A program made the translations under genes and the position numbers. Source: a virus. From it: 64,000 nt of DNA. The notes beneath the pieces were generated by a model. The model did not search any database. It worked only from the letters and a program-made list of their open reading frames with translations, and was not told the DNA's origin. Each line of letters opens with the position of its first letter. The stretch's first letter is position 1. Shown one piece after another: positions 32,245 to 39,373 of this stretch. The stretch is taken from the IMG/VR virus record IMGVR_UViG_3300009376_000001; one strand, 5' to 3'.

Positions 32245-33384
32245 TTACCATTCCTCAATGTCTGAATCTACAGCTACTTCTTCGAATATTTCCTCATTGT
32301 GGTCAGTAAATATATCACATACTGTCAACTCTAAGGATAATAAATCATCACTATTTGATTTTTGTAGCTGAGTGAACATAGTAGCAATTCTAGAAAGCTT
32401 ACTTTGTTTCACATTCTTAGAAATTTCTTTTAATCGTTCAACCGTATCAGATGGGCGATAAACTGTCAATTCATTCATAATATACATACAATCTGCTGCC
32501 AATTTAACCATAAATTCAGCAACTTCTACCGGATTAGCCCCTAAATCCCATAATTGTCTAATAAGTAAGAACCCTTCAGTTAATGTACCAGTACAGCAAA
32601 TTTGAAACAATTCAAGCGATACTTGCTCAATTTCACCATATAAAAACTTAATTACCTGCTCTGGAGGCTCTGAATCAGATAACGTAAGCACCATATCTAA
32701 AATATTTTCCGCATCTCTTAAAGAACCATCAGATTTTCCGATAATACTAATTAAAATATCACGAGACACAGTTCGTTGCTCTGATACGCAAATTCTAGCC
32801 AACTTATCTAACATTGCTTTAGGTAGAACTTTTTTAAACAAAAGAATCTGGCATCTAGAAGATAATGTAACGAATGCTTTATCAGTATCTGTCTCCGACG
32901 AAGGATTCTCTGTTGTGCAGAAGACAAAATGAACATGCTTAGGAGGCTCTTCAACTATTTTTAATAGAGCATTTAATGCTGCTGCAGTTAATTGATGAGC
33001 TTCATCGATAATAATAAATTTCTTATCAACATGCTGGGGGCGAAGATGTACAGTCTCGATTAACTCACGAACTGCTTCTATTCCTCTATTCGATGCTGCA
33101 TCTATTTCCATAGCGTCGTGTATTGCGAATTTACATCCCACACATGTACCACATGCTGTAAATCCTTTTAATTGCTCGCAGTTTGCAACTTTGCACAATA
33201 TTCTAGCTATTGATGTTTTCCCACTTCCACGTGGCCCACGAAATAAGTACGCACCTGCAAGTCGTTGTTTTAAAACAGCATTGGATAGAACACGAGAAAT
33301 TGCATCTTGTCCAACAATTTCATTTAAATTCTGAGGTCTATATCTATTAAATAAGTTTACCTGGGTGACCATCATCAATCTCAA
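32245..33384 (-). CDS. dnaX: DNA polymerase III gamma/tau-like clamp-loader subunit
   Basis: RYRPQ..VGQ, Walker A GPRGSGKTS, Zn CGTCVGC, EIDAASNRG, DEAH, SRC, SDGSLRDA. Confidence 0.92.
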   Translation of the reverse strand: MRLMMVTQVNLFNRYRPQNLNEIVGQDAISRVLSNAVLKQRLAGAYLFRGPRGSGKTSIARILCKVANCEQLKGFTACGTCVGCKFAIHDAMEIDAASNRGIEAVRELIETVHLRPQHVDKKFIIIDEAHQLTAAALNALLKIVEEPPKHVHFVFCTTENPSSETDTDKAFVTLSSRCQILLFKKVLPKAMLDKLARICVSEQRTVSRDILISIIGKSDGSLRDAENILDMVLTLSDSEPPEQVIKFLYGEIEQVSLELFQICCTGTLTEGFLLIRQLWDLGANPVEVAEFMVKLAADCMYIMNELTVYRPSDTVERLKEISKNVKQSKLSRIATMFTQLQKSNSDDLLSLELTVCDIFTDHNEEIFEEVAVDSDIEEW

Positions 33385-33841
33385 TTATTTGACGTTTAAA
33401 TTCTTCAACCTTATCTAATACTTCAGTATTTTGACCGATGCGAGCAATATGTTCTAAATGATCAATACGTTCATACATTTTATTAAGACGTTTTGTGTAC
33501 CCCCGCTTAGTCTTCATATCAGTGGCTGAAGCTTTAGCATCTTCCAAAGCTTCTAATTTCACGTTAACTTCTCGCATCACATCGGAGATAAATATGTTGT
33601 ACGCTTCCACCAATTCCTCAATATCGTCTTCTTCAACATCGGCTTTAACCACGAATAGATTTTTATCCAATGTTTTAAGGGACTTAAAACTATTCGACGA
33701 ATACGGCATGCAGTACACGCTTTGATTACGTAAGGCTGCGCCAACACGCCGTAAACCACGAAGCAACCGCACCCTACGGGCCGATTCTTTTGACCCCATG
33801 TCGAAAAAGACAAAGCTCCACTCCTTTAATTGTGTGTCCAT
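33347..33841 (-). CDS. ChrB-N/PaaX/Cas2-like ferredoxin-fold protein
   Basis: WSFVFFDM...RVRLLRGLRRVGA..QSVYCMP follows the pattern of these families. Confidence 0.55.
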   Translation of the reverse strand: MDTQLKEWSFVFFDMGSKESARRVRLLRGLRRVGAALRNQSVYCMPYSSNSFKSLKTLDKNLFVVKADVEEDDIEELVEAYNIFISDVMREVNVKLEALEDAKASATDMKTKRGYTKRLNKMYERIDHLEHIARIGQNTEVLDKVEEFKRQIIEIDDGHPGKLI

Positions 33842-34259: not shown

Positions 34260-34285
34260 ATAATTTAACGCATTTGGAGGTATAT

Positions 34286-34858
34286 ATGAGAATAGCATCG
34301 TTTGATATTGAAACGACGGACTTGAAAGCTAACATGGGAATTGTACTGTGTGCAAGTTTTCATGAAATTGTTCCACCTGGTTATTATTCTAATCATCACG
34401 ATACCCCAAATAAACCCTATACCTTAAAACTAAAAATAGAGGACCCCTACGATCCTAATCCTGATAAAGCGTTAGTAATAGCTATTAGAGATGAAGTAGA
34501 GAAATATAACGGTATCGTTACATGGAATGGGAAAATGTTTGATGTTCCTTTCATCAACTCCCGTTTAATGTTCCACGGCGAGCGTCCGGTAAAACCACAA
34601 TTTCACATAGACGCAATGTACTATGCCGGAGGTACTGCAAATAGAATTGGTAGCCGACGATTAATATCAGTTCAACAATTCTTAGGTATTAATCCTGAAG
34701 AAGGTAAAACTCCGCTAACTTGGGATACATGGAAATCCGCCATGCGGGGCAGTCCTAAAGCTATGAAAGATGTTGTTAAACATTGTGAAATGGACGTAGT
34801 CGTTCTTACTAAGGCGTATTGGGCCTTACTGCCTTATATAGCTAACATACACAGATAG
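34286..34858 (+). CDS. DEDD-family 3'-5' exonuclease (RNase H-like)
   Basis: FDIETT, TWNGKMFDVPFI, HID, HCEMDV; GGAGG RBS before ATG 34286. Confidence 0.85.
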   Translation: MRIASFDIETTDLKANMGIVLCASFHEIVPPGYYSNHHDTPNKPYTLKLKIEDPYDPNPDKALVIAIRDEVEKYNGIVTWNGKMFDVPFINSRLMFHGERPVKPQFHIDAMYYAGGTANRIGSRRLISVQQFLGINPEEGKTPLTWDTWKSAMRGSPKAMKDVVKHCEMDVVVLTKAYWALLPYIANIHR

Positions 34859-34942: not shown

Positions 34943-35833
34943 GTGGCATTTTTGGTAGAGCTAAACACACGCCAAAGTTTAGAAAAATACCTAGTTGATA
35001 ACCCTACAGGAAGAATAAATACCGCAGAACTTAGCAGAGCATTGGGAGTTTCTCGTCAACGTATATGTAATCTATTAGATACAATGGGAGAAGATAGACA
35101 TCATAGACTCCCTGCTCTGATTAATCATTGTAAAACTTGCAAAAAACCTATCAGTAAGCATGCAACGTTCTGTAGAACTCACGCTAAAATTATTGAACGA
35201 CATCCTGGCGCATACTACCAATGTAGAGTATGTCAACAACATAAAGTATTAGAACAATTTGCTAAGAGTAATATTTCATCATCAGGATATGAAACTCGTT
35301 GTTTAGATTGCAGAGCTAAGTGGCAACGTAATTATTACAAAACGGAGAGAGGTAAACAGAGTCACATTAAAACAACTCGTGCTCTATCTCAGAAACATCC
35401 TGAACGACAACGAGCATATTATCAAGTTTACAAAGCATTAAAAAATGGAATTATCTCTAAGCAACCTTGTTTTAGATGTAACGCTTCAAAAACCCAAGCA
35501 GTACATTCAGATTACCGTAATCCTTTAGACATTACTTGGGCATGTTTAACATGCCGTAGTGAATTACCTACTCCTGAAACCTATACTGCAAATCCGCTAG
35601 AAGATGGATTCAGGGAATTTATTCGAACTAGAATAGGTAAAACTAATGGACTAGGAAGATGGTTAGAAATTATTAAACAGCATTACAACATTACATTCTT
35701 AACCACTAATATCTTCTTAACGTCCATTAAAGAATATAAAGAAATCGAAGGATTAGGCCGACAGTACAGAGTCTTAGCATCTCAATATGCTAATGAACTT
35801 CTCATCGAATTATCTCCCGAAAACCATACCTAA
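34943..35833 (+). CDS. HTH plus Zn-finger protein with degenerate HNH-like domain
   Basis: ELSRALGVSRQRI HTH; several CxxC; PCFRC..AVHSDYRNPLDITWACLTC resembles phage HNH (HHxDYxKPLxVxWLCxxCH) with His substitutions. Confidence 0.65.
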   Translation: MAFLVELNTRQSLEKYLVDNPTGRINTAELSRALGVSRQRICNLLDTMGEDRHHRLPALINHCKTCKKPISKHATFCRTHAKIIERHPGAYYQCRVCQQHKVLEQFAKSNISSSGYETRCLDCRAKWQRNYYKTERGKQSHIKTTRALSQKHPERQRAYYQVYKALKNGIISKQPCFRCNASKTQAVHSDYRNPLDITWACLTCRSELPTPETYTANPLEDGFREFIRTRIGKTNGLGRWLEIIKQHYNITFLTTNIFLTSIKEYKEIEGLGRQYRVLASQYANELLIELSPENHT

Positions 35834-35841
35834 ATGACGTA

Positions 35842-35870
35842 TTGACTTCATCGATTATATTTGGTATACT
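35842..35870 (+). promoter_or_regulatory. sigma70 promoter of the Tas-like gene
   Basis: TTGACT-17-TATACT with extended TG. Confidence 0.75.
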
Positions 35871-35940
35871 ACTGCCATGTCCTCAGAAATGGGGTCAAAT
35901 TCAAAAGTCAATGTAAGACTATAACTGCATGGAGAAAGGT

Positions 35941-37029
35941 ATGGTAAAAGCACAGGAGATGGTTACCGATATCATGGGAGACGATGAAGAGTTTTCTCTG
36001 GATATGAATAGTATTCGATCCTTTCAGATAGAACTTGTAAATCGAATCACTAAGGATGCTCTCGATAAAATTGGTTCGAATCCTCAAGGTATGTCAAAGG
36101 ATGAAATTCGTTTTCTAGTTAGTTCTTATTATGGCGTTCAAGAACTACGTAAGCTACTAAAGAATCGAGTTTCGGCTCTCTCAAAGCAAGATGATCCTGC
36201 TTCTATGTTCTCTTTTGTTTCTGATGGTATTGAAACTACCGAGAAAAATATTCAAAAATTCCTAGCAGTTGCTAGCGGTCAGGAAGTAATCGGACAGTGG
36301 GCAGAGTCTATACGAGGCATTGGGCCAGTTATTTCCGCAGGTTTACTTGCTCATATTGATATGAATAAAGCTCCTACGGTTGGACATATATGGCGGTTTG
36401 CGGGATTAGACCCAACATTGGAATGGCTAGGACGAGATAAGTCCTCCAAGTTGGTATCTGAACTCATAGAAGGCCGTGGAGCCGAAGTTACTGAAGAACA
36501 GTTTGCTCAGATTGCTACTGCAGCTAATCGCAAAGCAGATACTTTCATGGAACAAGTTCAGAATTTTGCTACTTCAACAGGAAAGGGTTCTTACTTAACC
36601 AAAGATAATATAGTTAAAACCCTTTCAAAGCGTCCTTGGAATGCTGATTTGAAATTAATATGTTGGAAGTTGGGTGAATCCTTTGTAAAGGTTTCAAACC
36701 ATCCAGAAGATATATACGGTAAAGTCTACCAAGCACGAAAAATGCTAGAGACTCAGAATAACGAATCGGGTAAGTATGCAGAACAAGCTGCTAAGAAACT
36801 GGAACGTGTAGGACGTTCTACCGATGCATATAAGTCGTATGTATTAGGTAAACTACCTCCTGCTCACTTACATGCACGAGCTAAACGGTATGCTGTAAAA
36901 CTATTCTTGGCACATTGGCATCATGTAAACCATGAAGCAACATTCGGCACACCTCCGCCAAAGCCATATATCTTGAACCAAGAAGGCCATACGCATTATA
37001 TTGCTCCCCCTAATTGGCCTATGGCGTAA
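35941..37029 (+). CDS. tasA: TasA-like Nop-domain protein (IS110-related, no RuvC/DEDD domain)
   Basis: Coiled coil EIRFLVSSYYGVQELRKLLKNRV; IS110/Nop motifs SIRGIGPVISAGLLAHID, IWRFAGLDP, WNADLK..W, YGKVYQARK, HARAKRYAVKLFL; no N-terminal GIDV motif; TIGR-like array in the same region. Confidence 0.75.
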   Translation: MVKAQEMVTDIMGDDEEFSLDMNSIRSFQIELVNRITKDALDKIGSNPQGMSKDEIRFLVSSYYGVQELRKLLKNRVSALSKQDDPASMFSFVSDGIETTEKNIQKFLAVASGQEVIGQWAESIRGIGPVISAGLLAHIDMNKAPTVGHIWRFAGLDPTLEWLGRDKSSKLVSELIEGRGAEVTEEQFAQIATAANRKADTFMEQVQNFATSTGKGSYLTKDNIVKTLSKRPWNADLKLICWKLGESFVKVSNHPEDIYGKVYQARKMLETQNNESGKYAEQAAKKLERVGRSTDAYKSYVLGKLPPAHLHARAKRYAVKLFLAHWHHVNHEATFGTPPPKPYILNQEGHTHYIAPPNWPMA

Positions 37030-37079
37030 ATCAATAGGCCACCTCATTGAAAGGTGGGGTGGCCTAGCTAGGATTAACT

Positions 37080-37259
37080 ATGGCTGAGAAAAAAGAATAT
37101 CAATGTCCAAGAGGACATACTTTTGCAACGGAATCTCCAATTATCATCGCAGTAGAAGATGACCCTGAATACAATTCAGGAGTAGTGTGTCCATACTGTT
37201 ATGTGAATTGGTTTAGATTAAATATAAGTGCAGAGGAATCCTCTAGCCACTCCGCCTGA
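37080..37259 (+). CDS. Small Zn-ribbon protein (59 aa)
   Basis: MAEKKEYQCPRGH..VCPYC; not in the ORF track. Confidence 0.55.
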   Translation: MAEKKEYQCPRGHTFATESPIIIAVEDDPEYNSGVVCPYCYVNWFRLNISAEESSSHSA

Positions 37260-37275
37260 TTGGTCAGAAAGAATG

Positions 37276-37320
37276 AGTGACCCTAGAGAAACTAGAGTAC
37301 CATTTGAATCGAGTCAGTAT
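37276..37320 (+). repeat. Orphan TIGR-like unit
   Basis: AGTGACCCT-agagaaact-AGAGTACCA-tttgaatcg-AGTCAGTAT. Confidence 0.55.
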
Positions 37321-37385: not shown

Positions 37386-37838
37386 ATGCTATCACGTAGA
37401 CAAACTTTTCCTAGAAGACGGCCTCTCTTTTCTAATCTAATTGAAGAATTTCTATCTCCGACGGTCAACAAGGACTCATATACGTCTCAACCTTCTGTCT
37501 TTGATGTAGTTCAAAAATTAGATGAAGAACGAGATATAGCACTTACATATATGTTCCTACCAGGTGTTACATCCGATCAAGTTGATGTCTCAGTAAATTC
37601 AACTGCTCACGTTATTAATATAGTAGTTAATGTGAATGAGACAGATACTAATGACGTACTAACGCATGTATATGCTAATCGAGTACAAAAGTCATTTCGT
37701 ATGACCTCAGATTATGATATCGAACAGACGACGGTAGATTTGTCTAATGGAATATTAACCCTTACGACACCTCGTCTATCGAAATCCCCCGAATCTATAA
37801 AACTACCTATCAATACAAAAACAGAAAAGAAAAAGTAA
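37386..37838 (+). CDS. Hsp20/alpha-crystallin small heat-shock protein
   Basis: LPGV...VDVSV; DLSNGILTLTTPR; own promoter TTGACT-17-TATAGT at 37320. Confidence 0.8.
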   Translation: MLSRRQTFPRRRPLFSNLIEEFLSPTVNKDSYTSQPSVFDVVQKLDEERDIALTYMFLPGVTSDQVDVSVNSTAHVINIVVNVNETDTNDVLTHVYANRVQKSFRMTSDYDIEQTTVDLSNGILTLTTPRLSKSPESIKLPINTKTEKKK

Positions 37839-38497: not shown

Positions 38498-38866
38498 ATG
38501 TTTGAATATTTTTGTAAAGTTACTCGTGTTGTAGATGGCGACACTATCGATGTGAATATCGATTTAGGATTTCAAATCTGGCATAAAGCTCGTGTGCGAA
38601 TGCTAGGGATAGACACTCCTGAAAGCAGAACACGTAACAAAGCAGAAAAAGCACTAGGCTTGGCGAGCAAGCAGCGTCTAAAAGACATGCTTAAAGGCCA
38701 AAAAGTTAAGATTGCATGTAGCAAAGAAAAAGGTAAATTTGGTCGAGTTTTAGCTACCGTTATTACTGTAGCTGAAGATGGTACGGAAACTGATTGTAAT
38801 AATCAATTATGTATCGAAGGACATGCTCGACCTTATTTTGGTGGTAAAAAAATCCCGTGGGTATAA
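38498..38866 (+). CDS. Thermonuclease (SNase-like)
   Basis: VTRVVDGDTID, RMLGIDTPESRT, KFGRVLA. Confidence 0.9.
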   Translation: MFEYFCKVTRVVDGDTIDVNIDLGFQIWHKARVRMLGIDTPESRTRNKAEKALGLASKQRLKDMLKGQKVKIACSKEKGKFGRVLATVITVAEDGTETDCNNQLCIEGHARPYFGGKKIPWV

Positions 38867-38878
38867 GGTAAAAGATTA

Positions 38879-39373
38879 ATGACTAGAATAACTCCACAAT
38901 ATTATCAAGAGAATAGCGCATCTAGAAGTAGATTAGAATGGCTTAAAAAGTTAGTAGAAAATCAGGGACGTACTATTCCTGATGATTTTGATGTTGATGA
39001 AATTAGTTGGGTAACAGATCGCCTAGGAATAACGGATTTTGAAGGTAGTGAAGAATCTGTACTACAAAACTATTTCACTATTTGTGTTGCTGGAGAATTA
39101 GATTCTTCTGCCCAAATAAAAGCTGACTTAGATCCGTATTCAGGACGAGTTACCGACGATTTAACAGAATTAGCAGCATTGATACATAAAGTACTTACAG
39201 AATCTGATGATTCAAAAGTAGTTGTACACTGCGCTATGGGAATGGAACGCAGTCCTCTCACAGTAGTGTGGTATTTACACACTTATCATGACATGTCTAT
39301 TGATGACGCATACGACCTAGCCATTCAAGCTAGACCAGTAGTGTGTGATCGTCGTGAGTGGATTGATTCTTAG
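38879..39373 (+). CDS. Dual-specificity protein phosphatase
   Basis: VVVHCAMGMERS = HCxxGxxRS. Confidence 0.85.
   Translation: MTRITPQYYQENSASRSRLEWLKKLVENQGRTIPDDFDVDEISWVTDRLGITDFEGSEESVLQNYFTICVAGELDSSAQIKADLDPYSGRVTDDLTELAALIHKVLTESDDSKVVVHCAMGMERSPLTVVWYLHTYHDMSIDDAYDLAIQARPVVCDRREWIDS

Follow-up and report, generated by a model that had tools for sequence, protein, structure and literature searches.

A gene carried by a marine phage raises two questions: whether its product, described from the DNA letters alone as a nuclease-less relative of Nop and IS110 proteins, is an RNA-guided DNA-binding protein or what is left of a transposase, and what a long segment in the middle of the protein contributes. 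We addressed both in a 64,000-nt stretch of DNA (the window) from a complete marine phage record, 141,341 bp long and bounded by direct terminal repeats (IMG/VR IMGVR_UViG_3300009376_000001), with family models, structure prediction, comparison of relatives and repeat analysis.

The phage gene and its family

The coding sequence (35941-37029, + strand), hereafter tasA, specifies 362 aa and a stop codon. A longer alternative start exists at 35929, and 35941 is the most likely start because close homologues begin with MVKAQ or MAQAT and because a GGAG lies 6 nt upstream; a 366-aa reading is the numbering used for Pfam coordinates, and the 362-aa numbering is used for all motifs. The open reading frame and every element quoted from it in the original prediction were present, namely the motifs GIGPVISAGLLA (126-137), FAGLDP (153-158), WN..LK (233-238), Y..RK (263-267) and ARAKRYAVKLFL (312-323), and a ~70-aa segment, TLEWLGRDK...KTLSK, that occupies aa 159-230 (~72 aa). 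The protein had also been said to begin at its coiled coil, which needs correction: ~50 residues precede the coiled coil, modeled with low to moderate confidence (aa 1-50, 35941-36090, +; pLDDT 42-67, one helix at 22-44, no Pfam match). This N-terminal extension holds no nuclease domain, and at the equivalent place relatives carry 20-110 aa. The coiled coil itself is a helical hairpin (aa 53-113, 36097-36279, +), a predicted dimerization element according to the AlphaFold2 model and the TaTasR alignment; its helices (53-82 and 88-113) have pLDDT >90 and align with the coiled coil of TaTasR, starting at its residue 113. A helix-hairpin-helix region follows (Pfam Transposase_20, aa 122-168, 36304-36444, +; E 1.5e-5), with GIGP..LLA and FAGLDP in columns that are almost invariant among aligned homologues.

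The gene upstream ends at 35833 and leaves an intergenic gap of 95 bp, too short to have housed a lost N-terminal domain. Of the strong promoter claimed for tasA, what was found in this gap is a promoter-like site, sigma-70-like and predicted by consensus match only (35842-35870, +; TTGACT-17-TATACT with an extended -10 TG, 10/12 matches). This site is the first in a run of 35 near-consensus sigma-70 promoters (TTGAC[TA]-N16-18-TG.TATA.T) on the + strand, compared to three on the - strand, that spans 35842-64000 and continues to ~84 kb (window-oriented genome coordinates). Many of these are followed by a conserved 'TATCAAA'-like element, and the run looks like a dense battery of early promoters. 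Directly 3' of the tasA stop codon, a GC-rich hairpin was read from the sequence (37037-37066, +) that is a possible terminator or RNA end; a scan called it on the - strand only, and on the + strand it has no T-run. Searches of a phage sequence collection by tblastn and megablast returned no match, although such results may omit the window's own genome and records close to it.

Family models assigned the protein to the Tas family. It scored 169.1 bits with the NCBIfam TIGR-Tas model (NF052498.1; cutoff 100, E 1.3e-49, matched over positions 1-213 of the 215 in the profile), whereas the IS110 model (NF033542) reached 26.6 bits against a cutoff of 140 and matched aa 86-204 only. PHROG 4285 also matched (E 1.7e-45), under the PHROGs label "transposase", and the IS110-type helix-hairpin-helix Transposase_20 was the sole domain reported by Pfam. 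Neither Pfam nor NCBIfam detected a DEDD/RuvC or HNH nuclease domain in the protein, which bears out the claim that an N-terminal RuvC-like DEDD domain is missing; the usual serine motif is missing as well, with no Ser-Gly present after AGLDP. No bridge-RNA or other Rfam family was found. The name given to NF052498.1 is 'RNA-guided endonuclease', yet the model covers the Nop core only, and this name would mislabel nuclease-free TasA proteins such as the one studied here.

The fold agrees with this assignment. An AlphaFold2 model built from 121 sequences (pLDDT 87.3, pTM 0.82) was compared to the PDB with Foldseek, where TasH or TasR complexes took all of the first ten places and IS621 and ISCro4 came next. 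The structural comparison proposed as a check in the original prediction was run with VIA-align and ranked TasH first (9w04_B, Z 19.2, 227 aa, 3.5 Å), then TasR (9mty_B, Z 17.7, 194 aa, 2.7 Å), IS621 (Z ~13.4) and Nop5 (1nt2_B, Z 7.7, 146 aa, 4.0 Å), the last a distant match only; the scores for TasH and TasR stand well above unrelated rows, which lie at Z ≤9. Residues before 50-54 of the model fall outside the alignments to TasH and TasR, showing that the protein consists of the Nop core alone, the TasA architecture of Faure et al. (2025). The fibrillarin-binding N-terminal domain of Nop5/Nop56/58 is absent, and kinship with these proteins is at the superfamily level only. Altogether, family scores and fold comparison identify the product, as predicted, as a TasA without a nuclease, belonging to the published family of TIGR-Tas RNA-guided proteins, and not as an IS110 transposase.

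This architecture is widespread. Out of 8000 candidates scored at the 90%-identity level, 6321 were homologues; at the 50%-identity level, 2608 clusters matched, 1255 of them with E 1e-30 or better. Relatives occur on at least 575 viral contigs in IMG/VR, and a set of 185,579 prokaryote species genomes yielded no more than 59 loci. Four metagenomic TasA relatives of 689-953 aa (P0176, P0181, P0251 and P0259) contain an intein in which Hint, a LAGLIDADG homing endonuclease and an Intein_splicing domain are recognized. The intein of P0176 and P0251 begins just past the residues aligned to ~aa 244, in the conserved CWK helix after the wedge (see below), and the N-terminus of P0176 is a DksA/TraR zinc finger.

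Guide arrays and processing residues

Repeat analysis located two TIGR arrays on the same strand as tasA, ~10 kb downstream of it. The first comprises ~22 dual-repeat units (46981-47785, +) and the second ~33 (48035-49225, +), for a total of ~55 units at a strict 36-nt period. Each unit reads AATGAATCA, a 9-nt spacer A, ANAGTAYCA and a 9-nt spacer B, with repeats of 9 nt, spacers of roughly 9 nt and a semi-conserved purine before each repeat; this is the dual-repeat TIGR layout. Across the whole genome, unit-like matches number 60 on the + strand and three on the - strand. Ahead of the first array lies another promoter-like site (46407-46435, +; TTGACT-17-TATAGT), predicted by consensus match only.

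The original prediction had staked its reading on a link between homologues and 36-nt arrays, and such a link exists: in most relatives, a 36-nt array directly adjoins tas. In the phage, tasA and the arrays are paired not by adjacency but because the complete 141-kb genome holds a single Tas gene copy and a single repeat family. The two closest relatives, L001 (82% identity) and L002, have their array 7-9 kb from tas as in the window, so the remote layout is a trait of this phage lineage. Surveys limited to the immediate neighborhood of the gene can miss such arrays.

Several repeat-like elements lie elsewhere. A degenerate TIGR-like unit at 37273-37320, ~250 bp 3' of tasA, has an exact loop repeat (AGAGTACCA) and an edge-like element (GAATGAGTGA) with 13 nt between them rather than 9; judged from the sequence, it is possibly what is left of an array that once adjoined the gene. 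Isolated unit-like matches, with edge and loop repeats at the correct spacing, occur outside the main arrays at 44802 and 44874 and, beyond the window, at 85194 and 85230 (window-oriented coordinates). The ~250 bp between the two arrays (47786-48034) contain no repeat units, only weak promoter-like sites, and the motif ACTATGT recurs at ~47808, at ~48022 and just after the promoter at 46407.

The C-terminal loop of the protein (aa 336-357, 36946-37011, +), delimited by alignment to SpTasH, carries Y343 (36967-36969) and H350 (36988-36990). By phmmer these align with Y289/H296 of SpTasH, the published metal-independent catalytic pair for pre-tigRNA processing. The position is kept as Y/H in 291 of 344 aligned relatives, as F/H in 40 and as W/H in 9 (340/344 in total). 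Its retention places the phage TasA in the self-processing dual-repeat clade, with Y343/H350 as the putative processing pair by analogy to SpTasH.

The enlarged wedge

We then located the long central segment on the solved Tas proteins. Residues 59-157 of the query match TaTasR 113-212 and residues 232-276 match TaTasR 228-269 (phmmer), with G155 on TaTasR G210 and W233 on TaTasR W229. In TaTasR the wedge is defined as G210-K230 within the Nop domain partition (Xu et al., 2026), and in TasR it keeps the displaced DNA strand apart from its complement. The mapping of these two residues identifies the insertion as an enlarged wedge loop, of ~80 aa compared to 21 aa in TaTasR. The enlarged wedge (aa 159-231, 36415-36633, +) ends at KRPWN, and its extra part (aa 164-229, roughly 65 aa) comes after the invariant W162. 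The wedge lies between the helix-hairpin-helix motif and the next helix, the place of the catalytic serine loop in IS621.

The prediction for the extra part is a four-helix fold (164-175, 185-194, 199-213 and 221-228), with a pLDDT of ~90 in the full model and 79 when folded alone on 44 sequences. Compared to the relative at 82% identity, pN was 0.137 in this module and 0.126 in the rest of the protein (synonymous sites being saturated, pS ~0.78), and these near-equal values indicate that the module is selected as strongly as the core. Its fold has no informative structural relative: Foldseek gave no PDB match with E <1, and the best VIA-align score against 48,161 chains (Z 7.0; mostly EF-hand pairs and acyl carrier proteins) is at the background level for small helical bundles. 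We do not claim an EF-hand, the query loop TSTGKGSYLTKD lacking the acidic Ca-ligand positions. The wedge of BlTasA has been published as an exapted intragenic guide array, an origin that we rejected for the helical module since the insertion DNA of 53 long-wedge genes shows no lag-36 autocorrelation and no repeat relics. In the searchable Tas literature, which tracks wedge length, no description of a helical wedge module was found, and no characterized Tas protein carries one; dual-repeat Tas proteins are described there as keeping a compact, nearly invariant Nop core with minimal variation, which does not fit the four-helix module.

How widely is the enlargement shared? The insertion is real, both against the solved Tas proteins, where it appears as a phmmer gap against TaTasR, and against short-form homologues (10 vs 73 aa), but the idea that it is special to this protein did not hold, as an enlarged wedge loop is common to a large share of relatives. 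The P158-P232 distance, 73 aa in the query, is bimodal, with 10 aa in 60 and 50-170 aa in 284 of 344 relatives, a sample ranked by similarity to the long-wedge query and hence biased to the long form. By contrast, the genome collection, which retained every matching locus, is dominated by the short form (24 short vs 4 long, with no call for 16). FpTasA, a characterized dual-repeat TasA, has ~37 aa at the wedge position.

A core phylogeny (FastTree), which had also been proposed as a check, was run and intersperses long and short forms (43 parsimony changes vs ~54 with shuffled labels). It does not support a single origin of the insertion; the interspersion reflects either repeated gain and loss or a poorly resolved tree, and we draw no conclusion on origin from it. 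Guide geometry does not distinguish the forms. The modal array period is 36 nt for both (30/44 long-wedge and 22/25 short-wedge loci with arrays), which rules out a long wedge that goes with a different guide length. Since relatives without the module carry the same kind of arrays, core activity probably does not need it. Many dual-repeat TasA proteins thus have a conserved, folded wedge module that others with the same array type lack, which poses a structure-function question. A functional add-on specific to nuclease-free dual-repeat TasA, seemingly acquired or lost on many occasions and serving either as a surface on which a host or phage factor docks or as a clamp that prolongs DNA residence, is a possible answer, to which we give a low probability.

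A narrower form of this idea, also raised in the original prediction, makes TasA an RNA-guided recruiter: its four-helix module would be the docking site for a phage or host partner, for instance a trans-acting nuclease, in the place where the HNH domain docks in TasH. In SpTasH the wedge loop and a beta-hairpin do form the docking interface for the HNH domain, and the phage module is folded, conserved and under purifying selection. Two nucleases are encoded nearby, a staphylococcal-nuclease homologue downstream (38498-38866) and an RNase_H_2/PolB-exo-type exonuclease upstream (34274-34858, +). However, when ORFs within 4 kb of tas were clustered for 81 loci, no gene family tracked the long wedge, and shared neighbors were limited to ~5 closely related phage contigs. 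The module offers no clue either, as it lacks an informative structural relative (best Z 7.0, Foldseek E >1), and a published survey found no consistent TasA partner, only occasional ParB-like genes (Faure et al., 2025, PMC12045711). On this evidence we regard recruitment of a partner as unlikely.

The remaining neighbors are as follows. Upstream, besides the exonuclease, are a 164-aa protein (33347-33841, -) with a weak, sub-threshold match to PaaX_M 'Cas2-like' (E 8.7e-4, 19.8 bits vs a cutoff of 24) and a 296-aa Cys-rich HTH/Zn-finger protein (34943-35833, +) whose synteny with tas is confined to ~5 related phage contigs; for these three upstream genes we found no evidence of joint action with TasA. 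Downstream of tasA are a 59-aa Cys4 zinc-ribbon-like ORF with no Pfam match (37080-37259), an Hsp20 homologue (37386-37838) and, beyond the staphylococcal-nuclease homologue, a dual-specificity phosphatase homologue (38879-39373).

Targets, mechanism and comparison with known systems

Natural targets have usually not been identified for TIGR systems. We searched for spacer-pair targets, in both spacer arrangements and with zero gap only, and found none with ≤1 mismatch, whether in the 141-kb genome of the phage itself or in related viral and genomic loci totaling 1.9 Mb; at 2-3 mismatches, matches equaled those of mismatched-pair controls. Targeting of self or of related phages thus finds no support in these sequences. 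In large collections an 18-mer would turn up many times by chance alone, which rules out a meaningful search for host targets.

Taken as a whole, a six-step mechanism in which the protein acts as a nuclease-free dual-repeat TIGR-TasA effector of a marine phage is, in our judgment, probable; dimerization, RNA processing, DNA binding and silencing are assigned to it by analogy with published homologous proteins. Host RNA polymerase would transcribe tasA early, from the predicted strong sigma-70-type promoter in a promoter-rich phage region, and the two arrays ~10 kb downstream would be transcribed from the same strand. TasA would dimerize via its coiled coil and bind the array transcript at its edge and loop repeats, and Tyr343/His350 would cut within the edge repeats to release 36-nt tigRNAs. 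The complex would then bind ~18 bp of DNA through the tandem spacers, the wedge with the invariant Trp162 keeping the DNA strands apart, and, lacking a nuclease domain, it would stay on the DNA and block transcription or replication of the target. That target would most likely be host DNA or a competing mobile element rather than the phage itself. The four-helix module would be an addition to the wedge loop at its tip, maintained by selection.

The role of repressor or DNA binder that we infer for the phage protein would agree with published experiments on other TasA proteins: FpTasA from Flavonifractor plautii binds 36-nt tigRNAs (Faure et al., 2025, PMC12045711), and MbTasA binds target DNA in EMSA and represses reporters (Xu et al., 2026, bioRxiv 10.64898/2026.09.09.750476). 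TasA might instead be an RNA-guided architectural factor that bends DNA or marks sites for replication, partition, recombination or packaging. TasR imposes a bend of ~180 degrees on its target DNA and such roles were suggested for TasA by the same authors (Faure et al., 2025, PMC12045711), and tasA lies among replication genes, with a clamp loader and an exonuclease. Yet activity on phage DNA would call for spacer pairs that match the phage's own genome, where none matched with ≤1 mismatch, and the sole experimental TasA data show repression, which makes an architectural function quite improbable. Finally, that the gene is the truncated, decaying remnant of an IS110-family transposase, stripped of its DEDD domain and catalytic serine, is hardly credible: Pfam sees only the IS110-type Transposase_20 and relatives are called 'transposase' by PHROGs and several source databases, but this reading is already contradicted by the family scores (the Tas model passes, the IS110 model stays at 26.6 bits of 140), a fold nearer TasH/TasR (Z 17-19) than IS621 (Z 13), strong purifying selection, a cognate 36-nt array, the same architecture in thousands of full-length homologues, too little upstream space for a lost domain and the lack of any bridge-RNA or other Rfam family.

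Read as a nuclease-free TasA effector, the phage system is an example of known biology, published in 2025-2026, and not a new system. It is closest in organization to the FpTasA/FpTIGR dual-repeat systems, with which it shares a solo, phage-borne Nop protein with a coiled coil, no nuclease and a C-terminal Y/H loop, as well as 36-nt units made of an edge repeat, a 9-nt spacer A, a loop repeat and a 9-nt spacer B. It differs in its wedge (~80 aa and four helices vs ~37 aa in FpTasA) and, compared to dual-repeat TIGR-TasA systems, in its arrays, which have ~55 units where 5-15 are usual and lie ~10 kb from the gene instead of adjoining it.

TaTasR (PDB 9MTY) and SpTasH (PDB 9W03, 9W04, 21KL) also have the Nop core, the coiled coil and dual-repeat 36-nt guides, and SpTasH shares the processing residues (Y289/H296 vs Y343/H350 in the phage protein). 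Unlike the phage TasA, both are DNA-cutting proteins with an N-terminal RuvC or HNH nuclease, and their wedge loops are short (21 aa in TaTasR, G210-K230) where that of the phage protein is enlarged. MbTasA, PlTasA (10.64898/2026.08.11.744272) and BlTasA are nuclease-free like the phage TasA, and the RNA-guided repression by MbTasA is the activity proposed here; these three, however, belong to stem-loop TIGR-TasA systems, whereas the phage protein is of the dual-repeat type. IS110 elements such as IS621 (PDB 8WT6) have a homologous RNA-binding Nop/Tnp domain (Z 13.4) but use a single bridge RNA, while the phage TasA is accompanied by tandem guide arrays, has neither DEDD domain nor catalytic serine and fails the IS110 model. 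The phage offers a complete and well-formed example of TIGR-TasA, with a single tasA and ~55 guides in two arrays, and what remains of interest is its undescribed helical wedge module and its remote, unusually long arrays.
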